Shown here: in pieces, positions 20,059-43,080 of the stretch
Numbering within the stretch: position 1 is the first letter of the stretch
Layout: each line of letters begins with the position of its first letter
IMG/VR virus record: IMGVR_UViG_3300035492_000416
Span: 1 to 43,080 of that record
Length of the DNA stretch: 43,080 nt
Strand: one strand, 5' to 3'
Source of the DNA: a virus
Taxonomy: Duplodnaviria > Caudoviricetes
Made by a program: the position numbers and the translations under genes
The notes under the pieces: model-generated
Seen by the model: only the letters and a program-made list of their open reading frames with translations
Databases searched by the model: none
What the model was told of the DNA's origin: nothing

Positions 20059-20603
20059 AGGCGCTTGACCCACATACGCCGCACGATGCGGTCATCTTCC
20101 GATTCGACCAGGCCCGCGACGCGCCACTGCACACCGTCGACCTTGAATACCGCGCCAGGCTGCGGGCGCCCCACTTCCACCACAGCTGCCTCCAGCTGAG
20201 TCGCAAACTCGACCATGCCGCCGAACTGGCCGGGACGGGCCACCTCGTGAACCAGAAAGACACGGCAGGCTGACGCCACCGCACCCGCCTGGGCAACGAA
20301 ACTGGCCGGCGTTCCGACCAGCTCTTCTGCCGAGATCACCAGCTCAGCGCCATTCCCGCGCGGATCGCGCACGCTGGCCAGGTGAAACAGCCGACCGCCG
20401 TGCCGCAGATAGCGGCCCGGGCGAAACATGTCCGAATGGCGAGCGCGGATCTCAACCAGCGAACGCTGCCGCAACCCGGCAGGGGCCGGACTCTCGCCTT
20501 CCTTGGTGCGGATATCGACCCAGCGCTTGCCCAGCTCCACGGCTTGCAGCTGATCGCTCAGGTCGACCAGCTGCGCGCGGTAACGCAATCGTCCTGCTCT
20601 CAT
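20055..20603 (-). CDS. Head-closure (stopper) protein with an extra C-terminal domain
   Basis: MRAGRLRYR start typical of SPP1 gp16/HK97 gp7-like proteins; about 85 aa longer than usual. Confidence 0.75.
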   Translation of the reverse strand: MRAGRLRYRAQLVDLSDQLQAVELGKRWVDIRTKEGESPAPAGLRQRSLVEIRARHSDMFRPGRYLRHGGRLFHLASVRDPRGNGAELVISAEELVGTPASFVAQAGAVASACRVFLVHEVARPGQFGGMVEFATQLEAAVVEVGRPQPGAVFKVDGVQWRVAGLVESEDDRIVRRMWVKRL

Positions 20604-29390: not shown

Positions 29391-31627
29391 AATGCTTTCC
29401 CCTTGCTGTTCTGCGGCAACAGCGGCGCCTGCTTGTCGGGGCGCCACGCATCCGGCTTCATGTACACATAACCCCGCGTCCCGCTGGGCGTACTGCCACG
29501 CCTGCGGCGGGGCCACTTCAGCCGGTGCATGATCTTGCCGACGCGCATCTGTGCCGGCTTGTCCCAATGGCTCGGGTCAATGTTCAGTGCCTTCTCCAGG
29601 ATATGAGCCCCGGTCACGCTGTCACCGATGTGCCGTTTCAGGTACTCGATGATCGGCTCCTCCCACATGTCGGCCAGGTAGCGTTGGTCCTGCTCAGCCG
29701 CGAACAGCTCGGCCTCGTCGCGCTCCACCCACCACACGTGGCCGGCCTTGTAGCAGGCAACCGCCTCGGCCCATAGCTGATCGCGGTCTGCCCGCAGCCC
29801 TTCGACGTCGACCTTGGTACACATCACCGGCCAGTAGCGCCGGTTGCCCGTGTCATCCTTCAGGTACTCGTCCTGGTTGGTCGTACCGACGAACACACAC
29901 TGACGCGGCACATCCAGCACCCGTCGCCCGTAGCTCTCGCGATAGGTATCAACCGAAGCCGAGAAGAACTGCTTGGCCCGCGTCGACTCGGCCTTATTGA
30001 ACGCATCCAGCTCGCCCAACTCGACGATCCACTTGCCCCGGATCGCTTGGTAGCCATCCTTGTCGCCAAGGTTGAATGGCGTATCCATGAACCACGCGCC
30101 TCCCAGCACTGACATCGAGGTCGATTTACCCGCCCCCTGAATCCCTTCGAGAATCAGCACCGAGTCAGCCTTGCAGCCCGGCTGGAACACCCGCGCAACA
30201 GCTGAGATCGGCCATCGCTTGGCCACCTTCCGGGTGTAGTCGCTATCGACGACACCGAGCCGGTCCTGCAGCCACTGCTCAAGGCGCGGCGTTCCGTCCC
30301 ATTCCAGTTGATTCAGGTACTCGCGGACCGGGTGATACGCGTTGTCATGCGCGACCGAGTTCACCGCCTCCAGCACCATGGCCGACTTCACCCGCAGGCC
30401 GTACACGTCCGCAAGCCATAGCGTCACCTTGATGTCGTCGAGGTCGCTCCAGTCGCCCGGCGCGCCACCATAGGGCGGCGTCCGCATCTTGCGAATCTTC
30501 GAGGCGAACTGGTCATAGGCGATCACTCCCTCCCAGCGCCGGTCGTTACCAAGGATCAGGGCCACGTTGTATGGGTGGCCGATCATCCCGCCCTTCTCCG
30601 AATACTGCAGCTTCTCCTGCCAGCTCTCGACCGTTGATGGGCGGACTACGGCCAGCACCTGGCGGCGCACCGCCTCCAGCCCTTCGGCTGCATGCAGGTC
30701 GTTGAAGTCCGTCCACTTGTCCTCGCGATCCGCATCGAAGATGGGCAGCACAACCTCCCCGCCAACGATCAGCGCCGCGTTCTCGGCCTTGATCTTGCCG
30801 ACATTGACCGGCTTGCCCTGAATCACCGTCTTCCAGTCATCGTCGGCACAGAACACCAGGCGCCGGCCCGGGTAACGCACCCGCAAGCCCTCGGCCACCG
30901 GCAACAGGTTGCCCGCATCGAAACAGCAGGCCACCGTCAGCGACGTAGCCATGTGCAGGCTTGCACCTGTCGCGTAGCCCTCGCACACCAGAATCACGTC
31001 ACCCGGTTCGGGATCGGGTCCGAACAGATGCACCGCTCCCTGCTTCTCCAACCCATAGGGCCAATAGGCCTTGTTCCCACCGAACTTCGGTTGCTCCTCA
31101 GGGAACAGAACCTGCAGCCCAACAATATCCCACGTCTTCACGTTGCGCATTGGCACTAGAGCGGTGCCGCTCTTGCGCTTGTAGCGCAACCCGAACCCGC
31201 CGACGCCCTTGCTCAGCAGGTACTGGCTCGAACCCTTCTCTTCCAGGTGCTTCCACATGCCGGCGGCGCGGCGCGCGGCGGTGCGATGCCTGCGCGCCTC
31301 GGCCTCGGCCGCCTTGCGCTGACCCTCCTCGGCGCGGGCCTTCATAACCGCCCGATCTTCCGCAGAAAGCTTGCCGCCCTTGGGCTTGATCTTGTGCCAG
31401 CTGCCCTTCTCACCGGAGCGCCAGTCCCCAAACGCGCCGCAGTAGAAGGTGTTGCCGTTACTGGTCAGGTGCTCATAGATCACGTACCAGCCAGTTTTCT
31501 CCGGGGCCTTGTCGCCCTCCACCTCGCAGCGGGTGCGCTGGCCGATCACCAGCGGCGTCACCGGCTTCAGGTCGCCGGCCTGCAGCTGGGCCAGCACATC
31601 GTCCAACAGTTCGTGACGATCAGCCAT
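29387..31627 (-). CDS. Primase-helicase (Toprim + VapE-like ATPase)
   Basis: CEGYATG, ADDD, TDFNDL, Walker A GIQGAGKST, GTTN..YLKDDTGNRRYWP; TGATG-coupled start at 31627. Confidence 0.93.
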   Translation of the reverse strand: MADRHELLDDVLAQLQAGDLKPVTPLVIGQRTRCEVEGDKAPEKTGWYVIYEHLTSNGNTFYCGAFGDWRSGEKGSWHKIKPKGGKLSAEDRAVMKARAEEGQRKAAEAEARRHRTAARRAAGMWKHLEEKGSSQYLLSKGVGGFGLRYKRKSGTALVPMRNVKTWDIVGLQVLFPEEQPKFGGNKAYWPYGLEKQGAVHLFGPDPEPGDVILVCEGYATGASLHMATSLTVACCFDAGNLLPVAEGLRVRYPGRRLVFCADDDWKTVIQGKPVNVGKIKAENAALIVGGEVVLPIFDADREDKWTDFNDLHAAEGLEAVRRQVLAVVRPSTVESWQEKLQYSEKGGMIGHPYNVALILGNDRRWEGVIAYDQFASKIRKMRTPPYGGAPGDWSDLDDIKVTLWLADVYGLRVKSAMVLEAVNSVAHDNAYHPVREYLNQLEWDGTPRLEQWLQDRLGVVDSDYTRKVAKRWPISAVARVFQPGCKADSVLILEGIQGAGKSTSMSVLGGAWFMDTPFNLGDKDGYQAIRGKWIVELGELDAFNKAESTRAKQFFSASVDTYRESYGRRVLDVPRQCVFVGTTNQDEYLKDDTGNRRYWPVMCTKVDVEGLRADRDQLWAEAVACYKAGHVWWVERDEAELFAAEQDQRYLADMWEEPIIEYLKRHIGDSVTGAHILEKALNIDPSHWDKPAQMRVGKIMHRLKWPRRRRGSTPSGTRGYVYMKPDAWRPDKQAPLLPQNSKGKAF

Positions 31628-31836
31628 CAGCCAGCCCTCCGCTCGTAGCGCGCTTGGCACGGCACGCACATCGTGCAGCCCCGGCCCTTCATCGCTTGCA
31701 AGCGCTCGGCAGGTATCGGCTCACCGCAACTTTCGCAGTCAGCAGTCACCCGCAGCGAGGCAGGCTTGCGCGCAGCCAGCGTCTGCTCCACCCGTTCCAG
31801 CACCAGGTCATTGGCGCGATCAGCAATGTCAGCCAT
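31627..31836 (-). CDS. TraR/DksA C4 zinc-finger protein (PtrB-like)
   Basis: MADIADRA, CESCGEPIPAERL..CTMCVPCQ. Confidence 0.9.
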   Translation of the reverse strand: MADIADRANDLVLERVEQTLAARKPASLRVTADCESCGEPIPAERLQAMKGRGCTMCVPCQARYERRAG

Positions 31837-32341
31837 AAACCACCCCCGCGCGATTTGCTTTGCGCACTGCCGCGCCCAGTCGGAACACCGCATGCACCAG
31901 GCGCTCGGCCAGCAGCTCGAACTCATCCAGCTCGTCGGCGGTAATCTCGCCATCATTCAAGCTCTTGCTCAGGTGCAGGGTCAGGCCGCTTTCGCGGGCC
32001 AGCATGTCGCCGATACCAGCCAATAGCGCGGCAGGCGTGTCCGTCTCGCGCAGGTCGGAAACGTCCACGCCCACCCAACCGATCGGGTGCAGAATCGCCT
32101 CAACGATGCGAGGGTCCCGTGTCAGATCCAGAATCAACTCCAGGTCGCGGATGTTCGGCGTGTGAGTGGTATTGGTCAGAGAGAGCTTGTGGTTCAGCGT
32201 GGTGGGATTGGTATCGCCGTCTACGGCAGCGATGGCGGTGGCTCCGCCTGGATAGTCGCGTACAGCGTGGTGGAGCGCTTGTGGCAATGTCAGCAGCGCC
32301 CGGCGGGCGCGCTCAGCGGAACAGAACCGGCTTCGGCTCAT
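31829..32341 (-). CDS. Phage regulatory protein, CII family
   Basis: YPGGATAIA..TTLNHKLS HTH and C-terminal DGEITADE motif; position after cro. Confidence 0.8.
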   Translation of the reverse strand: MSRSRFCSAERARRALLTLPQALHHAVRDYPGGATAIAAVDGDTNPTTLNHKLSLTNTTHTPNIRDLELILDLTRDPRIVEAILHPIGWVGVDVSDLRETDTPAALLAGIGDMLARESGLTLHLSKSLNDGEITADELDEFELLAERLVHAVFRLGAAVRKANRAGVVYG

Positions 32342-32365
32342 GGCAGTTTCCCCAAAAGTCTGCCA

Positions 32366-32394
32366 GTGACCGCGTGCGCGCCTGTTGCTACAGT
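32366..32394 (+). promoter_or_regulatory. Predicted sigma70 promoter antisense to the cro-cII transcript
   Basis: GTGACC-17 bp-TACAGT with extended -10 TG; predicted start ~32401. Confidence 0.55.
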
Positions 32395-32400
32395 TGCGCC

Positions 32401-32676
32401 GTGGTCACTTGCTGGTGGTCACTTGCAAGCGGTACGTCTGTGGTGGATTAGCCGCTTGCAACCCTGTGGCGAGGCCCATGCTCCGCATGAGCCCCGCCGC
32501 TACAGCCCGCCCTATCTGTGGTGGAGACGGCGGGCAACCCAGGGCATCCGTGCTCTGGTAGGTGCGGTAGATCGTTTGGTGTGCTGGCGTACTCCGACGA
32601 TCTACCGCATCACCCGACAGCACTGTGGTGGTGTGTCGGGAAAACCGGGCGGCTGGTAAGGCCGTTCGGCTTTTTA
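32401..32676 (+). ncRNA. Candidate structured multi-hairpin small RNA
   Basis: Eight consecutive hairpins, three with CTGTGGTGG loops; ends in a stem plus T-run; several stems need G-U pairs available only on the + strand. Confidence 0.6.
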
Positions 32677-32685
32677 TGGACTGGA

Positions 32686-33027
32686 TCAGGCCGCTTTGGA
32701 CCTACGTTCGCCCTCACGGCGATCGCCGTTGCGCCGCTCAGCAACACGACGGTCACCCTCGCGACGCTCAACATCGGGAAACTCGGCAGGCGCCGGAAAT
32801 AGCTCGGGCAGATCGGGGCGCAACTCATGGCGCCCAACCCCGGATAGTTTTTCGAGCGGGATCACCAGTTCAATCGGGCAAGCCCCTTTGACGCGGAGGT
32901 GATGCCAAAGGCGCTGCTGGGAAAAACGCAGGCCCATGGCCTTCAGCTTTCGGGACACCTCGGACTGTCCGCCAATCTTCGAAACGGCCTCTTCAAACGC
33001 CGCTCGCATAGACTCTGAATCATTCAT
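32686..33027 (-). CDS. Cro-like (YdaS-type) HTH regulator with C-terminal [D/E]RRxx repeats
   Basis: GGQSEVSR HTH, GVGRHELRPD motif, divergent from repressor; AAGGA SD. Confidence 0.88.
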   Translation of the reverse strand: MNDSESMRAAFEEAVSKIGGQSEVSRKLKAMGLRFSQQRLWHHLRVKGACPIELVIPLEKLSGVGRHELRPDLPELFPAPAEFPDVERREGDRRVAERRNGDRREGERRSKAA

Positions 33028-33056
33028 GGAAGAATCCTTTTATGTTGCCGCGACCA

Positions 33057-33127
33057 AATCTACAAACAAATCTGTCAACAAGCAACAGGCATTTTTGTTT
33101 CCCAAGCTACAAGCATGTTTGTAGCCT
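33057..33127. promoter_or_regulatory. OR-like region: three operators plus divergent pR/pRM-like promoters
   Basis: CTACAA-N6-CTGTCA (33060-33077), CAACAG-N6-TTGTTT (33083-33100), CTACAA-N6-TTGTAG (33107-33124); minus-strand TTGCTT-17-TAGATT; plus-strand TTCCCA-17-TAGCCT. Confidence 0.75.
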
Positions 33128-33134
33128 TCCTTCC

Positions 33135-33848
33135 ATGACTACTCCATCGCAACGCATGCAAGTGATCGCCGACCTGTTCAAGCGGCGCCGAACGGAACTG
33201 AACATGTCTCAAGAGGACGTGGCGGCGGCCGTCCGCGCGCTGCTAGGTGGCGAGGTGTTTAAGCAGCAATCCTATGCGGCAATTGAAAGCGGCAAGACCA
33301 AACACTCGAAGTACCTGGCACAGATTGCCCGCGTGCTTGGTATTCCCCCTCAAGCGGTCGATCCGTCAGCCCCACCACCAAGCCTGACAGCCAGCACTAC
33401 GATCGCTTATGGCGGTAATGCTCAGGTCATTGGCGAAACAACACGGAAGCTACCGGTTATAGGGTCTGTAGCAGCAGGCACCTGGTGCGAAGCTATTGAC
33501 ACCTTTCAGCCTGGCGATGCGGACGAATGGATCGACGCACCTGGGCCGGTGGGCCCGCACGCCTACGTGCTGAAGATCGACGGTGTCAGCATGTTCGACC
33601 CGGCCGGCCCCGTCAGTTTTGCGGACGGCGACAAAGTCGTCATAGACCCCGACAAGGAAGCGCAATCAGGCGATTTCGTGGTGGCCAAGCTCACGTCATC
33701 CAATCGCGTCACCTTCAAGCGTTTACGCAAAGAAGACGGAGAGTGGTACCTCGAAGCACTCAACCCCTCTTGGACTCCGAAGTACATACGCATCGACGAG
33801 GAGTGGCACATCTGCGGGCGGGGCATGTGGAAGGTGCAGCAACTTTAA
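33135..33848 (+). CDS. CI/PrtR-type repressor (HTH + S24 autoprotease), probably leaderless
   Basis: MSQEDVA HTH, VAAG cleavage site, GVSM and TFKRL catalytic motifs; no SD before ATG 33135. Confidence 0.93.
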   Translation: MTTPSQRMQVIADLFKRRRTELNMSQEDVAAAVRALLGGEVFKQQSYAAIESGKTKHSKYLAQIARVLGIPPQAVDPSAPPPSLTASTTIAYGGNAQVIGETTRKLPVIGSVAAGTWCEAIDTFQPGDADEWIDAPGPVGPHAYVLKIDGVSMFDPAGPVSFADGDKVVIDPDKEAQSGDFVVAKLTSSNRVTFKRLRKEDGEWYLEALNPSWTPKYIRIDEEWHICGRGMWKVQQL

Positions 33849-33866
33849 CAAGCAATAACACAACGA

Positions 33867-33911
33867 TTACAAAATTACCTGTTGACCATCCTACAATCTA
33901 AATTGTAGCTT
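33867..33911 (+). promoter_or_regulatory. OL/pL-like region: two operators over the early promoter
   Basis: TTACAA-N6-CTGTTG (33867-33884), CTACAA-N6-TTGTAG (33891-33908); TTGACC-18-TAGCTT. Confidence 0.75.
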
Positions 33912-33945
33912 TACCTCGTCTCCACCACAGACGAGGTATCGCCTC

Positions 33946-34122
33946 ATGGCAACCGCCACCCTGCACGTCCATCCAGCGTGCGCTTCCAATCGCAGCCTAA
34001 TTGAGCGCCTGCAAGCCGCAACAGGCATGCTGGTCGTGATCAGCAACGGTAAGCCCAAGCTCAAGGCCGGCGCGAACGTGCCCACCACCCCAATCAATCC
34101 ATGGGGAGGTGACGCCGCATGA
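33946..34122 (+). CDS. First gene of early operon, 58 aa hypothetical (absent from ORF track)
   Basis: GAGG SD, MATATLHVHPACASNRSLIERLQAATGMLVVISNGKPKL...GGDAA*, ATGA overlap with next gene. Confidence 0.8.
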   Translation: MATATLHVHPACASNRSLIERLQAATGMLVVISNGKPKLKAGANVPTTPINPWGGDAA

Positions 34123-34676
34123 ACCGCCTCCAACTTAACGCTACCGCGTTCATCCGCCTGCAGGCGCAGGTACGGCTCAATGGCACCTTTCAGCATCGCC
34201 TGATGGCCGAGAACCCGCGCCGCAGCGTGCTGACCAGCGTAGCCATCGAGCAGTGCGGCAAAGCCCTGCGAGTTGAAGTCACCCATAACGGCACGCGTAA
34301 CACCGTGACGCTCGACCGCCAGCGCCAGGACAACCCTGCCCGCCTGGCCCGCTTCCTTGAAGAAACGGTGAACGGGGATGAGCCAAGCAGCGTGTCCGAA
34401 ACAGGCGAAACGCTGCTGGTCGACAACATCGAAATCGTGCTGCGCCAGGCGCTTCGTGCCGGTCGGGGCGCCTTCCTGTTCGATGTGGATGAACTGCAGC
34501 CCGAGCTGGTGATTAGCCGGAACCCTCACGGCAGTTACATCGCGCAAATTCGCCTCGATGACGCCACCAGCATGATCGTGCTGCCGGCCGATCGTCAGCG
34601 CGCGTATACCCAGCTGTCCGACCACCTGGCGATGTTCCTGCACGGCTACCGCGACGCCCTCGCGGCCGCAGCTTGA
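34119..34676 (+). CDS. Hypothetical early protein
   Basis: GGAGG SD, coupled start, GC3-rich codons. Confidence 0.8.
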   Translation: MNRLQLNATAFIRLQAQVRLNGTFQHRLMAENPRRSVLTSVAIEQCGKALRVEVTHNGTRNTVTLDRQRQDNPARLARFLEETVNGDEPSSVSETGETLLVDNIEIVLRQALRAGRGAFLFDVDELQPELVISRNPHGSYIAQIRLDDATSMIVLPADRQRAYTQLSDHLAMFLHGYRDALAAAA

Positions 34677-34688
34677 GGAGGCGCACCT

Positions 34689-34979
34689 ATGAGCATGTCT
34701 CTCAAGTTCGCCGCCTCCCGGCTCGGGCTCGGGCACCGCACCCTGATGCAGCGCATGCGTGCCAAGGGCCTGCTGACCGAACATAACCTGCCGGCTCACC
34801 CTGATCGGGACAAGGCGTTTCTGGTCACGCGCGAAAACCGCTACCACCACCCGGACCACGGCCTGCAGTACCCGCGCACCACACGGGTGACACAGCAAGG
34901 TATCCCCTGGCTGGCCCAGCAGCTCGGCATCGAGCGCCCGCTACCGGAACCACAACAAGACCCGCGCGATGTCGCTTGA
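34689..34979 (+). CDS. Antirepressor KilA-C/ANT-domain protein
   Basis: AASRLGLG..LMQRMR.KGLL, TTRVTQQGIPWLAQQL; GAGGAGG SD. Confidence 0.8.
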   Translation: MSMSLKFAASRLGLGHRTLMQRMRAKGLLTEHNLPAHPDRDKAFLVTRENRYHHPDHGLQYPRTTRVTQQGIPWLAQQLGIERPLPEPQQDPRDVA

Positions 34980-35184
34980 ACCGTTCGCTATCTCGGGCGG
35001 CTCCGCTATGTGCGCCCGCTGGCCGCGCGAGTACGCCCGCCTAATCCTCGCGATGACAACCATCGAGGAGCGGCGGGCGGCATTGGCGGCTGTGCCGACG
35101 CACTTGCGCGAGCTGACCAGAACGCACGTAGAGATCGCCTGGAACCATCCAAAGGGGAACAACGATGGACAGCAAACTGATTGA
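34969..35184 (+). CDS. Hypothetical early protein
   Basis: Overlapping operon arrangement; WPREYAR..ERRAALAAVP. Confidence 0.65.
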   Translation: MSLEPFAISGGSAMCARWPREYARLILAMTTIEERRAALAAVPTHLRELTRTHVEIAWNHPKGNNDGQQTD

Positions 35185-35632
35185 CTCGCTGCTGATCGAG
35201 CTGCTGCAGCTACCCGAACAGCGCCGCACGCCGGAGAAGATCCTGGCCAACCTCACACTGGCGGCAACCGCTGCCGGCGTATCACTGACCACCAGCGCCG
35301 CGCCCCTGCAGATCGAGCACCTACAGCTGGCTGCAGCATTGGAGCGACTGGCCGAGCAGCTGGGCAGCCAGTACCGCGCTCGCGCCATGCTGCGCCTGGG
35401 CGGAGGGATTGATGGCGTCGAGCTGGGCGCAGTGGTCGAGCCACACGACAGCAGCTCGCCCCTACCCCGCTTCGTCGCATTCGGCGCCACGGCCCGCGCG
35501 GCACTGGCCGGCATCAACCGCGACATCCGCGCGAGCGCGGCGCCCAAGGCAGCGATGCCGAAGGCGCGACGGTCGGGGCGGCTTGGCCTGCACAAGCTGC
35601 AAGCCCAGCTCGATAGGGCTGCAACCGTATGA
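35165..35632 (+). CDS. Hypothetical early protein
   Basis: AAGGGG SD; ATGA coupling with next gene. Confidence 0.75.
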   Translation: MDSKLIDSLLIELLQLPEQRRTPEKILANLTLAATAAGVSLTTSAAPLQIEHLQLAAALERLAEQLGSQYRARAMLRLGGGIDGVELGAVVEPHDSSSPLPRFVAFGATARAALAGINRDIRASAAPKAAMPKARRSGRLGLHKLQAQLDRAATV

Positions 35633-35958
35633 GCCAGGCACAGCAAGAGCTGCGCCTGCGTCCGGCGCCACGCCCCGGCACCGTCGAGCTGCTGTATCGC
35701 ACCCTTGGCGACGTGCTCGTGCCCGTCGACCAGGTACGGGCCCGGTACTTCCGCAACCTCAACGAAGACAACTTCGCCCGAGCCCTCCACGCCGGCCGCG
35801 TTCCGCTGCCGGTCACCACCATCGACAGCAGCGCCAAGGCAATGCGGTTCATCGACATCCGCCATTTGGCCGTGCTGATCGACTCGGCCTCTGACGCCGC
35901 AGACGCGGCGCTGGACGAAGCGATAAATCCGGTAGTTCAACAAAAAGCTAGCAACTGA
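35629..35958 (+). CDS. Pyocin activator PrtN-family protein
   Basis: TVELLYRTLGDVLVP..VRARYFRNLN..GRVPLPVTTIDSS.KA, closely resembling PrtN. Confidence 0.85.
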   Translation: MSQAQQELRLRPAPRPGTVELLYRTLGDVLVPVDQVRARYFRNLNEDNFARALHAGRVPLPVTTIDSSAKAMRFIDIRHLAVLIDSASDAADAALDEAINPVVQQKASN

Positions 35959-36004
35959 CCACACCGCTGCCACCACCAGCGAACACCACCACCAGGAGTA
36001 CGCC

Positions 36005-36766
36005 ATGGAACTCGAAACCCACCAGCTCTACGCACTGTTCACCATGCTTGTCAGCATCGCCATACTGATCGGCCTTAGCTACTGCGCCGGTCTGCGCACA
36101 GGCCGAGCGGCCGGTATTCAGCAGGGCGGCAGATCGGCCAAGCGCTACGCGAAGTGTCTTCTGCAGGTCACCCAGGCAGAGCAAGCCGAGCTGCGCCAAA
36201 TGCTCGCCCGCGAGGAGCAACACACCGACAGCATCCGCGCCCAGCTCGATACGATGCGAACAGCACTCCACCAGGAGCAGGCCGAGCACAACATCATCGT
36301 CAAGGATCTGCTCGAAGAGCTGCAGCGCGAGCGCTCGAATGGCCTCACTCACGCGGACCATCAGATGCTGGTTCAGGTTGCTCGCGTGCTCGGACACGCC
36401 GCCGCCCAAGCCCGTAAAACCGGCACATCTAAAACCAACCAGTTCGCCGCAGCGCAAAGCCAAGTCACCGAACTCGCTATCCGCGCCCATGCCGCAGCGA
36501 CCGCGCCCAAGCTCAAGGCCGCGCTGGCCGAGAGCGACATCACAGACACAGACATGATTGAGTGGCTGGAGCGTGAGGCGACCGCCAACGGTGAGCACGA
36601 GCAGGTTGCGCTGTATTTCCCGGTTGCGCTGCCCGAAACGGGCCTGCCTACCCTTCGCGGCATCTTGCAGCTGGCTATCGAGCAGCACCGTGAGCGCGAG
36701 CAAGGGCTGGGTACTTGGGAGCGCGTCGACGCTGAAGTTCAGCCCGCCGCTGCCATGTGTGCGTGA
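36005..36766 (+). CDS. Membrane-anchored coiled-coil hypothetical protein
   Basis: AGGAG SD, N-terminal TM helix, long Q/E/A-rich helix. Confidence 0.8.
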   Translation: MELETHQLYALFTMLVSIAILIGLSYCAGLRTGRAAGIQQGGRSAKRYAKCLLQVTQAEQAELRQMLAREEQHTDSIRAQLDTMRTALHQEQAEHNIIVKDLLEELQRERSNGLTHADHQMLVQVARVLGHAAAQARKTGTSKTNQFAAAQSQVTELAIRAHAAATAPKLKAALAESDITDTDMIEWLEREATANGEHEQVALYFPVALPETGLPTLRGILQLAIEQHREREQGLGTWERVDAEVQPAAAMCA

Positions 36767-37001: not shown

Positions 37002-38287
37002 GCCCACAAGCTTTATCTGACAAGAATGTGGTCAGATTACGCGACACAACGCGAAATCTGATCAATACAGTAGCAACCGACTCTCTAAACGTCGGTGCCG
37101 CTAATGCTCTCGAAACTCCCCCGCCTGTCCCGGCTCGCTCTGCTGTTGCTTCTGCTCTTCTGGAGCGGCAAGGCTTCCTCGCCACCGCTGCACTCGGAGC
37201 CCCGGCCGTGCGAAAGCACGGCGGCGGCCAGGCACTGCGCGCACTCCTAACTGAGCAGACGGAAGGCCGCCATGCGCGCTTAACCGGTGGCGAGATAAAA
37301 AGTCTCTGCTGCGTAGCAGCAGGCATTATCGCTCTTGCTTCCCGCCCATGCGGAGCCCACGCACACCCCCTGACAGGCGTGCGCCGGGCCGCGCACCCTG
37401 CTGCCCCGCTTCGCTCATCGCCCCGCCCGCACGCGCAGCATGTTTTGAAGGTTCCACAAAGAACGTTGAGCCGGAAACGAAGAAACGCGGCGCATCGCAT
37501 AGACCTAAGGCGGTTCGAAGCACACTCGTTGGGCTGGCTAGCCATAAGGATGGAGATCAACAAACGTGCAGATCGACTTAGACATTTTGTCGTACTTGAA
37601 CTTCAAGTCTTCATCCCAAGCAGCAACCTCGCTGAGCCTGAACTTACGCGTACCCTTAAGGACATCAACGAGCGCGCCGTCAATCAGATAAACGCCGCGT
37701 TTTATAGCCAGCCAGGCGTCAGCCACGGCTTTGTCTTCGATCGATGCAAAAGCGATCGTCTCCATGTCGGCTGCGCTACTTCGGATCATATTCTGGAGAT
37801 GCTGGTACTCGGCGAGGGTGATAGAGCTAGCGTCTCGGACCTTATCCATAAGATGCCCAACGCTTGCAACTGCATAGCTAGCAGCTTGCAGAGCTTTTTC
37901 CATGTATTGGTGTGCATCGCGGTATCGGGCCGATTCTTCTCTTGCGCGGGCTCTAGCCGACTCCTTACGGGCGACATCTTGTTGCCAGTAAGCGACCGCG
38001 AAACCAGCCAGTATCGCACCGATGGATCCGACGGCTTGAACCCAGCCGCTGATATCACCCGGCTTCATATCGGCAATGAGGCGCAGGCAAAGTACCAAAA
38101 CAGCCAGCAACCAGACTGGAATTACTACCAAGCTCAGCACGCACGTCAGCCTGTAAAGAAACGTCCAGCTCCAGATTCTCATAGCAGCTCTCTAAGCCTT
38201 CCTGCGTTGGTGATGGAAAGCTTGCTGAGTTTCGGAGCGGCCGTCCACAACCGCTTTGTGACGGCAAGGATGGAGGACGCGGCATGA
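36998..38287 (+). CDS. Long ORF (429 aa) coupled at both ends and spanning an antisense gene; may not encode a folded protein
   Basis: GGAGG SD + ATGA overlap at 36998; ATGA overlap with xis at 38284-38287; no recognisable domain. Confidence 0.45.
   Translation: MSPQALSDKNVVRLRDTTRNLINTVATDSLNVGAANALETPPPVPARSAVASALLERQGFLATAALGAPAVRKHGGGQALRALLTEQTEGRHARLTGGEIKSLCCVAAGIIALASRPCGAHAHPLTGVRRAAHPAAPLRSSPRPHAQHVLKVPQRTLSRKRRNAAHRIDLRRFEAHSLGWLAIRMEINKRADRLRHFVVLELQVFIPSSNLAEPELTRTLKDINERAVNQINAAFYSQPGVSHGFVFDRCKSDRLHVGCATSDHILEMLVLGEGDRASVSDLIHKMPNACNCIASSLQSFFHVLVCIAVSGRFFSCAGSSRLLTGDILLPVSDRETSQYRTDGSDGLNPAADITRLHIGNEAQAKYQNSQQPDWNYYQAQHARQPVKKRPAPDSHSSSLSLPALVMESLLSFGAAVHNRFVTARMEDAA
37538..38182 (-). 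CDS. Membrane protein moron (two N-terminal TM helices)
   Basis: WVQAVGSIGAILAGFAVAYWQ motif common in phage cargo membrane proteins, then helical domain; AT-richer. Confidence 0.8.
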   Translation of the reverse strand: MRIWSWTFLYRLTCVLSLVVIPVWLLAVLVLCLRLIADMKPGDISGWVQAVGSIGAILAGFAVAYWQQDVARKESARARAREESARYRDAHQYMEKALQAASYAVASVGHLMDKVRDASSITLAEYQHLQNMIRSSAADMETIAFASIEDKAVADAWLAIKRGVYLIDGALVDVLKGTRKFRLSEVAAWDEDLKFKYDKMSKSICTFVDLHPYG

Positions 38288-38481
38288 GCTCGCCCCGCTG
38301 GGTACTCATACCCAAAGCCGCCGAGCTGTACGGCTACAGCAAGACGGCCATCGAACACAAGGTCAAGAACGGCACTTGGGCGCAGGGGCGGATCTGGCGG
38401 AAGGCCCGGGACGGGCGGATCTTCATCAACATAGAGGAGGTGGACAAGTGGGTCGAGCAGTCTCCGCAGGAAGCGGCATAG
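38284..38481 (+). CDS. xis: Excisionase
   Basis: Small winged-HTH (KAAELYGYS..IEHKVKNGTW..WRKARDGRIFIN) overlapping integrase start. Confidence 0.85.
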   Translation: MSSPRWVLIPKAAELYGYSKTAIEHKVKNGTWAQGRIWRKARDGRIFINIEEVDKWVEQSPQEAA

Positions 38482-39695
38482 AGGCCGAACTGGCGAAACA
38501 CACCGGCATCGAGATCCACGGCAGCAGCATACGCATCGTGTTCATGTGGCGTAAGCGCCGCTGCCGAGAGACGCTAGGCCTTCCCGTAACAAAAGCCAAC
38601 ATCAAGCACGCCGCCCAGCTCCGGGCGGCAGTGCTTCATGACATCAAAATGGGGAAGTTCGACTACGCCCACCACTTCCCCGAGTCCCGCCAGGCTGGCA
38701 ACTACAGCAGCAGCCGGGACGAACGCCTGGCGGCACTGCTGGAGCGTTACAAACCGCTGAAGGCAGTAGACATCACTGAGGAAACGGAGCGGCGCTATAA
38801 CTTGGCTCTCGATATCTGTGTCGAGATGCTGGGCAAGGATCGCCTCGGCAGCGTACTGCTGCCGGAAGACATTCAGAAGCTACGCGTAGAGCTGATCGAG
38901 ACGCGAGCCACATCCACAGCCAACCATTATCTAGCAACTCTTGCCGGCTTCCTCGGTTGGTGTGAAGCCAACGGTTATTGCCGGCTGGGGCTGGCCAACG
39001 CCTGCACGCGCTTCGAGATGACGGACCGCGACCCAGATCCGCTGACGAAATCAGAGGTTGAGGATTTGCTGCAGAAGGGCTGCCTGCATCCCATGGATCG
39101 AGCCGCCGTGACGCTCGCGGTCTACACCGGCCTTCGGCCGGGCGAACTGTGCGCGCTGGCCCATGAGGACGTCGACTTGGTGAGAGGCGTGATCCACGTT
39201 AACCGAGCGATTACGAGTGCCGGCGCATTCAAGCTGCCCAAGACTGGAAAGAAGCGAACCGTACTGCTTTTTCCGCCGGCACTGGAAGCCTGCCGCGAGT
39301 TGCTGGCGTTCAAGCACAACATCGATCCTCAGACCATTACCGTTCAGCTCACCCGCCACGAGTCGGTTCCGGAAACCGTCACGCCGTTGATCTCGCCACG
39401 CGTCCAGGCGCGCAAGAAGCACGTCAACACATGGTTCATCCCGTCCTCATGGAATTCGAAGTGGGCGAACATCCAACGCCGCGCACAGATTCGCCCGCGA
39501 CGCCCGTACCAGACCAGGCACACCTACGCCTGCTGGTGCCTAGTAGCGCGTGGTAACCTTGCGTTCATTGCCAAACAGATGGGGCACAAGGACTTCACGA
39601 TGCTTGTCCAGGTCTACGCCAAATGGATGGACGACGAGTCCCCGAACGAGCTACTCCACATTTGGAGTAGGCTTGAGCAAAAAAAAGGCCCCTGA
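38448..39695 (+). CDS. int: Tyrosine integrase with N-terminal arm-binding domain
   Basis: SIRIVFMW..RCRETL arm domain; TGLRPGEL, KTGK, YQTRHT, MGH, VYAKW; GAGGAGG SD before GTG 38448. Confidence 0.95.
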   Translation: MGRAVSAGSGIEAELAKHTGIEIHGSSIRIVFMWRKRRCRETLGLPVTKANIKHAAQLRAAVLHDIKMGKFDYAHHFPESRQAGNYSSSRDERLAALLERYKPLKAVDITEETERRYNLALDICVEMLGKDRLGSVLLPEDIQKLRVELIETRATSTANHYLATLAGFLGWCEANGYCRLGLANACTRFEMTDRDPDPLTKSEVEDLLQKGCLHPMDRAAVTLAVYTGLRPGELCALAHEDVDLVRGVIHVNRAITSAGAFKLPKTGKKRTVLLFPPALEACRELLAFKHNIDPQTITVQLTRHESVPETVTPLISPRVQARKKHVNTWFIPSSWNSKWANIQRRAQIRPRRPYQTRHTYACWCLVARGNLAFIAKQMGHKDFTMLVQVYAKWMDDESPNELLHIWSRLEQKKGP

Positions 39696-39707
39696 CGGGG
39701 CCTTTTT
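39679..39707. terminator. Bidirectional terminator between int and the convergent cargo operon
   Basis: A8-GGCCCC-TGAC-GGGGCC-T5. Confidence 0.85.
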
Positions 39708-39723
39708 ACAACATAGGAAGCTT

Positions 39724-39855
39724 TTAAGCTGCTTTCTCAGCCACATGTTGCTTGTGGGCTTGTTCGACACGCTCGAGCTTCAACTCAATCGAGCGCAGCA
39801 GCGCCTTGGCTTCTTTTGCAAGTGCCATAAATTGAATGTCATTAAGCTTCATCAT
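39724..39855 (-). CDS. 43-aa helical peptide (absent from ORF track)
   Basis: MMKLNDIQFMALAKEAKALLRSIELKLERVEQAHKQHVAEKAA*; GAGG SD and ATGA overlap with upstream gene. Confidence 0.7.
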   Translation of the reverse strand: MMKLNDIQFMALAKEAKALLRSIELKLERVEQAHKQHVAEKAA

Positions 39856-40178
39856 ACGAACGGCCTCTTTTCTAGCGTGGTCACGCAATTATTGAGCAGA
39901 TCTGCGTCATCATCGTCAATGGCTCGGGCTATGCCTTCCATCAACTCAAGATACTCACGCGCCTTACCTGCTACCAATGGATCCTGAATATCGTCTGCCA
40001 GCAAATCGATAATCGAGCAGACTTTATGGAATTGCTTAGCAATTTCTGCATACGTAGGGTTTTCTAACCGTAGCACAGAAATCGAGTAATTCTTCGCGCT
40101 ATGAAGGAAACGGTTGGCTACGTGCAGCAGATCTTCGTAAAGACCCTGAACAATCCTTGTTTTTTCGTCCTGCGTCAT
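39852..40178 (-). CDS. Acidic all-helical hypothetical cargo protein (108 aa)
   Basis: AT-rich ORF between int and att, GGTGG SD-like sequence. Confidence 0.8.
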   Translation of the reverse strand: MTQDEKTRIVQGLYEDLLHVANRFLHSAKNYSISVLRLENPTYAEIAKQFHKVCSIIDLLADDIQDPLVAGKAREYLELMEGIARAIDDDDADLLNNCVTTLEKRPFV

Positions 40179-40450
40179 GTTTCCACCCGCTCAAATGACG
40201 CGCGATTCTACACTCGCGCCCTCATTTGTCAAGCTGCACCTATCTGTTCCGCAGCGAGTGAAAACATCCTTAGTGAATTACTCTGTCTTTACTGACACTA
40301 TCATTGCCGCAAGAGTTCCACCACTACGGAACTGTGACATTTGTCGCTTCCGCAGACTAGAGCGACGCATGGTACGCTTATCCGCATAGCTCGCTAGCCC
40401 CAGCTTTCTCGGTTTCTACGCCCACTGCAGCAGAAGCAGCATGTGGCCAT

Positions 40451-40470
40451 GATGCCCCAAATTTGCCCCA
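40451..40470 (+). repeat. Integrase arm-type binding repeats, right end (TGCCCCA x2, 11-bp period)
   Basis: GATGCCCCAAATTTGCCCCA, matches 47-66. Confidence 0.75.
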
Positions 40471-40500
40471 CTGATTCGCCAACCCCTCGCTAACCTCCTG

Positions 40501-43080
40501 ATGAATAAAGCAATTCCTGATCTGTCACAGCATACCCCCATGATGCAGCAATATTGGAAGCTCAAGCGCGAGCACCCAGACCAGCTGATGTTCTACCGCA
40601 TGGGCGATTTCTACGAGCTGTTCTACGACGATGCCAAGAAGGCCGCCGCGCTGCTCGACATTACCCTGACTGCGCGCGGGCAGTCGGCGGGCACGGCGAT
40701 CCCTATGGCGGGTATTCCTTTTCATTCCGCCGAGGGCTACCTGGCGCGACTGGTCAAGCTTGGCGAATCGGTGGTGATCTGCGAGCAGATCGGCGACCCG
40801 GCGACCAGCAAAGGGCCGGTGGAGCGCCAGGTGGTACGTATCATCACCCCTGGCACGGTGAGCGACGAGGCGCTGCTCGACGAGCGCCGCGACAACCTGC
40901 TGGCGGCGGTAGTCGGTGACGAGAAGCTGTTCGGCCTGTCGGTGCTGGACATCGCCAGCGGCCGTTTCAGCGTGCAGGAACTCAAGGGCTGGGAGACCCT
41001 GCTCGCCGAACTGGAGCGCCTGAGCCCGGCAGAATTGCTGATCCCCGACGACTGGCCGCAGGGCCTGCCGCTGGAGAAACGCCGCGGCGTGCGCCGTCGC
41101 GCGCCCTGGGATTTCGATCGCGACTCGGCGTTCAAGAGCCTCTGCCAGCAGTTCTCCACCCAGGACCTAAAGGGCTTCGGCTGCGAGAACCTGACCCTGG
41201 CGATTGGTGCCGCCGGCTGCCTGCTGGCCTACGCCAAGGAAACCCAGCGCACCGCCCTGCCCCACCTGCGCAGCCTGCGTCATGAGCGCCTCGACGACAC
41301 GGTGATCCTCGACGGTGCCAGCCGGCGCAATCTGGAGCTGGACGTCAACCTGGCCGGCGGCCGCGAGAACACACTGCAATCGGTCATGGACCGCTGCCAG
41401 ACCGCCATGGGCTCGCGCCTGCTGACCCGCTGGCTGAATCGCCCGCTGCGCAACCGCGAGATCCTCGAAGCACGCCAGGACTCGATCACCTGCCTGCTCG
41501 AGCACTACCGCTTCGAACAGCTGCAGCCGCAGCTCAAGGACATCGGTGACCTGGAACGCATCCTCGCTCGTATCGGCCTGCGCAACGCCCGTCCGCGCGA
41601 TCTGGCGCGCCTGCGCGACGCACTCGCTGCGCTACCGCAGCTGCAGGCCGGCATGCGGGACCTGGTGGCACCGCATCTGCTGGAACTGGCGAAAAGCATC
41701 AGCACCTACCCGGAACTGGCCGACCTGCTGGCGCGCGCCATCATCGACAATCCGCCCGCGGTGATCCGCGACGGCGGTGTGCTCAAGACCGGCTACGACG
41801 CCGAGCTGGACGAGCTGCAGTCGCTCTCCGAGAACGCCGGCCAGTACCTGATGGATCTGGAGACCCGCGAGAAAGCGCGCACCGGGCTGGCCAACCTCAA
41901 GGTCGGCTACAACCGCGTGCACGGCTACTTCATCGAGCTGCCGAGCAAACAGGCCGAATCGGCGCCGGCCGACTACATCCGCCGGCAGACGCTCAAGGGC
42001 GCCGAGCGCTTCATCACCCCTGAGCTGAAAGAGTTCGAAGACAAGGCGCTGTCGGCCAAGAGCCGCGCCCTTGCCCGTGAAAAGCTGCTCTATGACGAGC
42101 TGCTGGAACTGCTCATCGGCCACCTGGCACCGCTACAGGAAAGTGCCGCCGCACTGGCCGAGCTGGACGTGCTGAGCAATCTCGCCGAGCGGGCGCTCAA
42201 TCTCGACCTGAATCGCCCGCGCTTCGTCGAGCAGCCGTGCATGCGTATCGAGCAGGGTCGCCACCCGGTGGTCGAGCAGGTATTGGAGACGCCTTTCGTC
42301 GCCAACGACCTGGACCTCGACGATGCCACCCGCATGCTGGTCATCACCGGGCCGAACATGGGCGGTAAATCGACCTACATGCGCCAGACCGCGCTGATCG
42401 TGCTGCTGGCACAGATCGGCAGCTTCGTCCCCGCCGCAGCTTGCGAGCTGTCGCTGGTGGACCGCATCTTCACCCGCATCGGCTCTTCGGACGACCTCGC
42501 TGGCGGGCGCTCCACCTTCATGGTGGAAATGAGCGAGACCGCCAACATCCTGCACAACGCCAGTGATCGCAGCCTGGTCCTGATGGACGAGGTCGGCCGC
42601 GGCACCAGCACCTTCGACGGCCTGTCGCTGGCCTGGGCAGCAGCCGAGCACCTCGCCAAGCTGCGCGCGTTCACGCTGTTCGCCACTCACTACTTCGAAC
42701 TGACCGTGCTGCCGGAAAGCGAGCCGGTGGTAGCCAACGTGCACCTCTCGGCCACCGAGCACAACGAGCGCATCGTGTTTCTGCACCATGTACTGCCTGG
42801 CCCGGCGAGCCAGAGCTATGGCCTGGCGGTGGCGCAGCTAGCCGGTGTGCCGGGCGAAGTCATCCAGCGTGCACGCGACCATCTGTCGCGCCTGGAAACC
42901 ACCAGCCTGCCCCACGAAGCGCCGAGAATGGCACCCGGCCAGCCGGCACCGCCGATGCAGAGCGACCTGTTCGCCAGCCTGCCGCATCCGGTGCTCGAGG
43001 AATTGGGCCGGATCAATCCCGATGATGTGACGCCGCGCCAGGCGCTGGACCTGCTATACAGCTTGAAATCACGCATTTGA
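40501..43080 (+). CDS. mutS: DNA mismatch repair protein MutS (full length)
   Basis: [15 protein letters not shown], Walker [33 protein letters not shown]. Confidence 0.99.
40531..40551 (+). other. Probable att core within mutS codons H-T-P-M-M-Q-Q
   Basis: CATACCCCCATGATGCAGCAA, 60 bp from the arm repeats; this motif is a known integration target in proteobacterial mutS; second copy not in window. Confidence 0.55.

Follow-up and report, generated by a model that had tools for sequence, protein, structure and literature searches.

Positions 33912–33938 of the window, by which we mean the whole 43,080-nt stretch of DNA that was analyzed (IMGVR_UViG_3300035492_000416, positions 1 to 43,080; Duplodnaviria; Caudoviricetes), appear to be the 5′ leader, conserved among relatives, of the first early-left gene. 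A predicted antisense RNA of ~276 nt probably pairs with this leader and represses translation. The earlier note on this DNA had proposed that loop pairing controls the early operon. What the comparison of relatives backs in that proposal is a trans-acting antisense RNA that pairs with the leader, through co-conservation, co-varying loops, a promoter and terminator on the plus strand, and a second SD-AUG site.

Read from the sequence, the switch region of the window is of the lambdoid type and belongs to a Pseudomonas prophage (Table 1). On the minus strand, cro is followed in pR-type order by a non-coding spacer of 345 nt, the CII-like gene, and then the genes for a DksA-like protein and a P4-type primase/helicase. 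After cI, the early-left order is promoter/operator, hairpin, a 58-aa ORF, a 185-aa ORF, the ANT/KilAC gene, the PrtN-family gene and a 253-aa protein. The earlier note had assigned an antirepressor, a PrtN-like activator, xis and int to this operon. The ANT/KilAC and PF11112/excisionase genes are indeed present, while the membership of int is doubtful: a minus-strand ORF (37538–38182) sits between the early-left genes and the integrase, which may therefore lie outside the operon. As a full-length host mutS comes after the integrase (38376–43080 region), the right end of the window is bacterial chromosome beside the attachment site. An AF2 model of the 58-aa first-gene protein is beta-alpha-beta with a pLDDT of 66.5, too weak for a fold search, and this protein is a candidate RNA-binding partner. 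The Cro-like protein carries an arginine-rich C-terminal tail (ERREGDRRVAERRNGDRREGERR; window 32686–32780, minus strand), which resembles arginine-rich RNA-binding motifs yet does not track the hairpins; the phage Haddon Cro homologue, ~84 aa by its annotated length, is too short for such a tail.

Table 1. Features around the switch region of the window, in order of position
Feature	Position	Strand	Basis or remark
CII-like activator gene	31829–32341	−	PF06892; RNA gene is on the strand complementary to its 5′ untranslated region
RNA promoter	32366–32394	+	predicted; −35 GTGACC 32366–32371, 17-nt spacer, extended −10 TG(C)TACAGT 32386–32394
Predicted antisense RNA, ~276 nt	32401–32676	+	convergent with pR; promoter, terminator, fold (eight predicted hairpins)
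5′ hairpin	32401–32422	+	predicted fold
H1	32423–32461	+	predicted fold
H1 loop segment CGTCTGTGGTGGA	32435–32447	+	complements leader 33921–33933
HX	32468–32498	+	predicted fold
H2	32505–32535	+	predicted fold
H2 loop and upper stem TCTGTGGTGGAGACG	32515–32529	+	complements leader 33917–33931
Pa	32539–32558	+	predicted fold
H3	32564–32608	+	predicted fold
H3 loop segment TGGCGTACTCC	32585–32595	+	complements SD-AUG of ORF 36005
H4	32613–32640	+	predicted fold
H4 loop CTGTGGTGGTGT	32623–32634	+	core copy 32623–32631; 32625–32634 complements 35983–35992
Intrinsic terminator of the RNA	32645–32676	+	10-bp stem, then CTTTTTA; abuts cro stop codon
cro-like gene, first of rightward-type operon	32686–33027	− (pR sense)	ORF list, PHROGs/Pfam scans
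cI-type LexA-like repressor gene	33135–33848	+	same direction as early-left operon
Early-left promoter, putatively CI-controlled	33882–33911	+	−35 TTGACC 33882–33887; −10 about 33905–33911
Leader hairpin, 10-bp stem, 7-nt loop	33912–33938	+	TACCTCGTCT-CCACCAC-AGACGAGGTA, read directly
First early-left gene, 58 aa	33946–34122	+	PHROG 13491; no Pfam match
ANT/KilAC-domain gene	34689–34979	+	domain scan
PrtN family gene	35629–35958	+	PF11112; named excisionase by PHROGs
Second target region	35965–36007	+	hairpin CGCTG-CCACCAC-CAGCG 35965–35981, then ACACCACCAC 35983–35992 and GGAGTACGCCATG 35995–36007
ORF 36005, 253 aa, hydrophobic N-terminus	36005–36766	+	PHROG 28364; no Pfam
Integrase gene (Arm-DNA-bind_2 + Phage_integrase)	38376–39695		family match

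The leader hairpin presents CCACCAC in its loop (33922–33928) and holds the SD GAGG (33933–33936) within its 3′ arm, followed by the ATG at 33946. The description in the earlier note of a hairpin that holds the GAGG of the first early gene at the predicted pL start is thus exact in sequence and coordinates. The fold has an energy of −18.8 kcal/mol (z = −5.15), and none of 200 shuffles is equally stable. The early-left promoter, which is σ70-like, ends exactly where the hairpin begins; a consensus promoter scanner gave no call for it, and the promoter was read by eye. It is overlapped by an operator, CTACAA-N6-TTGTAG (33891–33908), that has a second occurrence between cro and cI. In 75 of the 96 distinct related leaders the best −10 ends 11–14 nt ahead of the loop core, and with this placement transcription would start inside the 5′ arm, near G33918, where we predict the early-left start. 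An mRNA that starts near G33918 folds with −8.4 kcal/mol into the 4-bp top stem only, leaving the SD free. Transcripts from the early-left promoter would carry this 4-bp hairpin top and a free SD, and only read-through from cI would yield the full 10-bp stem, with the SD buried in it.

Ninety related loci have a leader-type hairpin, in 71 distinct sequences; the pattern behind this count misses the clade of the window itself, where the hairpin was found separately. Among relatives the hairpin is fused at the identical junction to at least eight different promoter/operator types, and the half-site spacing of its palindrome differs by 4 bp. Pairing in the outer stem survives through compensatory changes (TACC/GGTA, TTGCC/GGCAA, CACC/GGTG) and through G·U pairs in the leader sense, from which we infer that the long form of the leader must matter. 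Distant cI relatives (L005–L010, 32–40% identity) have a different leader in which the motif is absent. In two loci, L143 (at about 2060–2095, rc) and L144, cI and the early-left promoter are separated by an intrinsic terminator. No intrinsic terminator is found at window 33849–33881, between cI and the early-left promoter, so read-through from cI into the leader is more likely here than in L143 and L144.

The earlier note had also pointed to two perfect complements of the leader within the cro–cII spacer, and both hold to the nucleotide: 32515–32529 is the exact reverse complement of 33917–33931 (15 nt) and 32435–32447 that of 33921–33933 (13 nt), neither extending any further. A third copy of the 9-mer core is located at 32623–32631. 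The core, CCACCACAG, has five copies in the window versus 0.42 expected, a count reached in 0 of 100 shuffles, and four of the five fall in the control region; the fifth, at 20177–20185 in the structural-gene region, is probably due to chance. Of 200 mononucleotide shuffles of the window, 3 produce a complement of at least 13 nt to 33905–33950. When ORF-start windows are ranked by their longest contiguous complement to the RNA, the leader is first of 238 and ORF 36005 is tied third with 11 nt. This measure replaced RNAduplex energies, which proved uninformative over 239 ORF-start windows, as long gapped GC-rich pairings dominate them. Cofolding of H2 with the leader from its predicted start gives a ddG of −10.7 kcal/mol, and with the full hairpin a modest −4.2; no complex is favored for H1 or H4 with the full hairpin, nor for H3 with the second target, in an MFE treatment that leaves loop–loop contacts out of its model. 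All three spacer copies read with the pR transcript, and the leader copy reads with the early-left transcript. Since the copies thus share their sense on two transcripts, the complementarity can have a role only if there is plus-strand transcription of the spacer as well.

The cro–cII spacer does appear to be a plus-strand gene. Its −35 element (GTGACC or GTGCCA) and extended −10 element (TGnTAnAGT) are kept across a variable spacer of 17–18 nt in 19 haplotypes from 35 hits. We counted such signals in 100 distinct 450-nt regions upstream of cII from related Pseudomonas prophages. The extended −10 TGnTAnAnT is present in 92 of these in the plus sense versus 0 in the opposite sense, an intrinsic terminator in 92 in the plus sense versus 6 in the pR sense, and both signals occur jointly in 85, for a median predicted RNA of 264 nt; an earlier subset had given 17/34 for the plus-strand signals versus 0/34 for the opposite sense. 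The terminators of these related RNA genes are 34 different hairpins, and the terminator stem in the window can form three G·U pairs on the plus strand only. The RNA gene therefore has an independent promoter and terminator, is separated from the leader operon as a transcription unit beyond cro and cI, and is fully antisense to the cro–cII spacer of the pR transcript. In the phage Haddon clade no clear terminator is seen, and the plus-strand transcript there may continue toward cI. Phage Haddon (L001) also has a deposited 46-aa hypothetical protein, CDS0011 (2463–2603), inside the structured spacer, which is probably non-coding given the 1–2-nt indels and the stem covariation in the family alignment.

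The loops of H1, H2 and H4 in the predicted fold carry CUGUGGUGG, and they match the CCACCAC loop of the leader and the second hairpin at 35965–35981. Across 23 sequences and 43 pairs, 97.2% of cells are paired versus 86.5% after shuffling, and 18 pairs show a change on both sides; neither value is attained in any of 500 shuffles. Slid controls are 34–40% paired. The contexts in which the core motif is displayed differ, from 7-nt loops to loops of 14–25 nt. As to which strand folds, wobble cells in the 23 close sequences (53 G·U versus 9 A·C) favor the pR sense, while 70 diverse sequences give 32 versus 17 cells (9 versus 10 columns); we dropped wobble counts as a test of the folding strand, since they are clear on the close set and not on the diverse one. 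Comparing MFE between the strands is biased toward the G/U-rich strand, and the energies lean against the pR sense for reasons of composition. In the clade of the window, hairpin HX pairs better in the pR sense. Folding of both strands would be expected of a cis-antisense pair. At the predicted 5′ end of the RNA (32401–32422), two copies of GTGGTCAC can pair, in the plus sense only, as an 8-bp helix that includes two G·U pairs, and the variants of this helix in L065, L087 and L127 still pair via wobble. Alternatively, these copies could be protein-binding repeats.

The RNA also matches a second initiation region, that of ORF 36005, where GGAGTACGCCATG (35995–36007) spans the SD to the start codon. 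The H3 loop (32585–32595) complements GGAGTACGCCA at 35995–36005, which comprises the SD and the first base of the start codon, and 32625–32634 in H4 complements 35983–35992. Together with the match to the hairpin, these lie in the collinear order that antiparallel pairing requires. The early-left flanks of 101 loci contain 383 SD+ATG sites, of which 21 have at least 10 nt of complement to the RNA within −20..+6 (control orientation, 4), and at 12 nt or more the counts are 16 versus 0. A gene with a hydrophobic N-terminus follows 18 of the 21 sites, and the target ORFs with such N-termini range from 40 to 253 aa, a point of comparison with type I toxin–antitoxin pairs, in which a small hydrophobic toxin is countered by an antisense RNA. 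The sequence shared by H3 and the SD-AUG region exists in five versions, GGAGTACGCCA, GAGCACACCACATG and GCAAACCAAATG among them. L179 and L190 differ in that the match of their H3 loop falls around the start codon of the first early-left ORF. Hairpin 2 was located in 22 loci; in 11 of them it reads UCACCAC, as does H4, while H2 reads UUACCAC, and the leader reads UUACCAC in eight of the nine of these loci where it was found. Base pairing would predict two partner pairs that diverge separately in this manner, and fits them better than one protein does. Homologues of ORF 36005 are 40 to about 150 aa in length and start MTAIQIF... or MMTPIQIG...; its product is possibly a membrane-acting early protein.

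Relatives were drawn from three sources: a scan of IMG/VR for the motif pair, with 27 family loci and 23 distinct spacers (from the 120 loci of the scan together with L001–L004 and the window), CII-based searches of IMG/VR (22 loci), and a search by CII among contigs that represent one genome per species (80 Pseudomonas loci). For the collection scan we relied on the CII alignment, that of the 58-aa first gene being too variable. The earlier note had staked the pairing on its co-conservation in related phages, and the core is present in the cro–cII spacer of 89 of the 90 leader-bearing loci. There are 140 same-sense matches of at least 11 nt that link spacer and early-left flank, spread over 88 of 101 loci, as compared with 28 in 18 of 101 in the control orientation. 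The 7-nt loop is nearly invariant across dozens of diverged prophages, and where it varies among CCACCAC, UUACCAC and CUACCAC, the leader and the RNA loops change together. A C before ACCAC in the leader is matched by a C in a spacer copy at 69 of 75 loci, and a T by a T at 14 of 14. The exceptions are 6 of the 75 C-type leaders that have no C-type spacer copy; in L155, L157, L158, L159 and L178 a C-type leader is combined with T in the spacer copies, which would give a C·A mismatch. L143 has TCCTACCACAGAG at both leader and spacer, and its clade has lost the motif from H2. The first differences beside the core are wobble-compatible in 33 versus 19 cases, a mild excess in counts that are not independent. 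The co-variation as a whole comes from few clades, and so from few independent events.

These data suggest how the antisense RNA might act. The RNA would be made in lysogens and early in infection, and its loops would first kiss the exposed CCACCAC loops. From there, pairing would spread to 13–15 bp, adjoining the SD in the leader or running across the SD-AUG of ORF 36005, and would block 30S binding, with possible knock-on polarity. When abundant, the pR transcript would titrate the RNA through its perfect complementarity.

A nut-like role for the hairpins had been offered in the earlier note as an alternative. In its general form this reading takes the CCACCAC hairpins on both transcripts as nut/put-like or other sites for one phage or host factor, acting in antitermination, stability or translation, with the complementarity as a by-product. 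We consider it unlikely, even though the motif has the same sense on the pR and early-left transcripts, as a shared factor needs, its 7-nt loop has hardly changed over diverged prophages, some wobble pairs favor folding in the pR sense, and the cro–cII position resembles that of lambda nutR. Matches to the boxA consensus, CGCTCTTA, number 18 in the window at up to one mismatch, and none of them falls within 32300–34000. No N-like family was found for 13 ORFs in PHROGs or for 8 in Pfam, and the 58-aa first early-left protein has no arginine-rich N-terminus. The motif stands in very different loop contexts. In the pR sense, the single terminator-like hairpin seen behind cro comes before the spacer hairpins. 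The H3/SD-AUG sequences differ completely between clades, which would be hard for one protein to track, nor do two loop/target pairs that diverged separately in one clade speak for it. Indeed, the nut-like alternative is disfavored by the lack of a boxA near the hairpins, the lack of an N-like match among the scanned ORFs and the pair-specific co-variation.

It is similarly improbable that the leader acts in cis only, burying the SD in cI read-through or stabilizing the 5′ end of the mRNA, with the likeness of the loops due to common descent or gene conversion. Such a role leaves unexplained a conserved loop that co-varies with loops 1.4 kb away in at least eight immunity modules, and equally the complementarity to the SD-AUG at the second target. 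Several observations do speak for a function in cis: the SD is located in the 3′ arm of an outer stem that is kept by compensatory changes and G·U pairs, the −10 abuts the hairpin in the 75 of 96 leaders mentioned above, so that stem length would depend on the promoter, and in the window cI is co-directional with no terminator before the early-left promoter. A cis role of the leader and the antisense pairing that we prefer can hold together.

The plus-strand promoter might instead be pRE-like and used in establishment, with a transcript that serves cI expression, interferes with both pR and cro and has no target in trans. We regard this as very unlikely, as a strong terminator stands ahead of cro in 92 of the 100 distinct regions, the promoter is of the extended −10 type with no activator-type repeat seen at its −35, and the co-variation of loops with targets would go unexplained; what it has in its favor is the Haddon clade, with no terminator before cro, and a position and direction that match those of lambda pRE. 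Iterons or operators at the DNA level, for the P4-alpha-like primase/helicase or another DNA-binding protein acting at an origin and a distant cis site, are least probable of all, because every copy of the 9–12-bp motif is in a hairpin loop whose stem changes by compensatory substitutions and paired insertions, the half-sites of the leader palindrome vary in spacing by 4 bp and the second motif contains an SD and start codon, despite three copies within 200 bp beside the P4-type primase gene and an inverted one 1.4 kb off. A further idea, an Rsm/CsrA sponge built on GGA in two plus-strand loops, was rejected because it leaves both the conserved CUGUGGUGG and the co-variation with targets unexplained.

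The antisense RNA that we favor has the general features of trans-acting antisense RNAs, namely an independent promoter and terminator and co-varying complementarity to initiation regions. In excerpts of PMC12197685, P1/P7 c4, P22 sar and lambda OOP (77 nt, antisense on cII mRNA) are given as phage antisense RNA regulators, and sar is, as we propose for the predicted RNA, a small phage RNA that blocks early-gene translation initiation in an antirepressor region. The c4 RNA of P1/P7 (immI) resembles the RNA proposed here in being a structured phage antisense RNA whose loops pair near a ribosome-binding site in an antirepressor operon, and there a few loop nucleotides set specificity and hence heteroimmunity. 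However, c4 measures about 77 nt and arises by processing of the transcript under its control, whereas the RNA here is a separate convergent gene of about 264–276 nt with ~8 hairpins and is, unlike c4, also fully antisense to the pR transcript. We found no covariance-model match to the C4 antisense family (P1/P7 c4, P4 CI type), and the RNA gene, with a promoter and terminator of its own, departs from the c4 mode of processing out of the leader of the controlled operon. The sar RNA of P22 is read from the strand opposite its own target site, while the leader and ORF 36005 sites are 1.2–3.6 kb from the RNA gene and share only short loop matches with it. The likeness to lambda OOP lies in a terminated antisense RNA that is convergent with the pR operon and adjoins cII. 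OOP overlaps the 3′ end of cII, and we know of no established trans targets for it; the RNA here, in contrast, covers the 5′ untranslated spacer of cII and has matches in the other early operon. In lambda nutL/nutR with N, and in HK022 put, the same hairpin motif occurs early in both divergent transcripts. The motif on both early transcripts and the cro–cII position are shared with these systems, but the lack of boxA and of an N-like match, the variable loop contexts and the pair-specific co-variation that includes an SD-AUG are not. The kissing-loop antisense systems ColE1 RNAI/RNAII and R1 CopA/CopT have several stem-loops with fully complementary 7-nt loops on antisense and target, and they control replication in cis only; here, unlike in these plasmids, additional targets in trans bear the same loops. 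The RNA would then be a further variant of the phage antisense-RNA regulators that differs in location, size, independent gene and cis/trans reach, with no match in Rfam.

Indeed, no Rfam family was found at E ≤ 1 in window 31500–35000 or in the spacers of L190, L171, L143 and L145, and Rfam includes a C4 model. In listings from literature searches there was no description of this Pseudomonas prophage RNA, excerpts of PMC7326022 name no such RNA, and none is named among the phage antisense RNAs in the excerpts of PMC12197685. With regard to transcripts, RNA-library contigs from a culture with an L020-like prophage cover the RNA gene and, being assembled, carry no strand, ends or level. A 218-nt metatranscriptome contig, likewise strand-less, lies wholly within the RNA gene, from 32408 to about 32625. 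All eight RNA runs consist of assembled contigs that possibly include DNA; from X3 and X8 no contig aligned. Contig depths in X4 and X5 are 360 and 177 for the spacer and 19 and 23 for the early-left contig, values that cannot rank expression.

Lambdoid switches are usually told through proteins (CI, Cro, CII, N), and here a conserved structured RNA gene stands at the center of the switch. The group that bears it is large, as the 88 of 101 loci with matches between spacer and early-left flank come from many Pseudomonas species. We tentatively raise the further possibility that the ~270-nt RNA constitutes a CI-independent immunity code at the RNA level. In a lysogen, it would act in trans to silence the first early-left gene and the membrane-protein gene, and in cis to silence the cII/replication arm, in any incoming relative with the same loops, whatever its repressor specificity; CCACCAC, UUACCAC and UCACCAC would then define immunity groups, and firing of pR would soak up the RNA, release the early-left targets and so couple both early operons. 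If pairing and repression take place as we propose, there would be an RNA layer on the lysis–lysogeny decision, and possibly on cross-immunity between heteroimmune phages, with a bearing on prophage induction, superinfection and the behavior of temperate Pseudomonas phages. The naturally co-varying pairs of loop and target also offer an unusually clean system for the specificity of kissing loops.

Finally, short matches to the RNA are seen inside coding regions as well. CTCCACCAC (32267–32275) lies in a small hairpin within cII, in the pR sense, and TGACCACCAGC (35286–35296, in ORF 35165–35632) is common to three loci, L131 included. Both may be chance matches or extra pairing sites.
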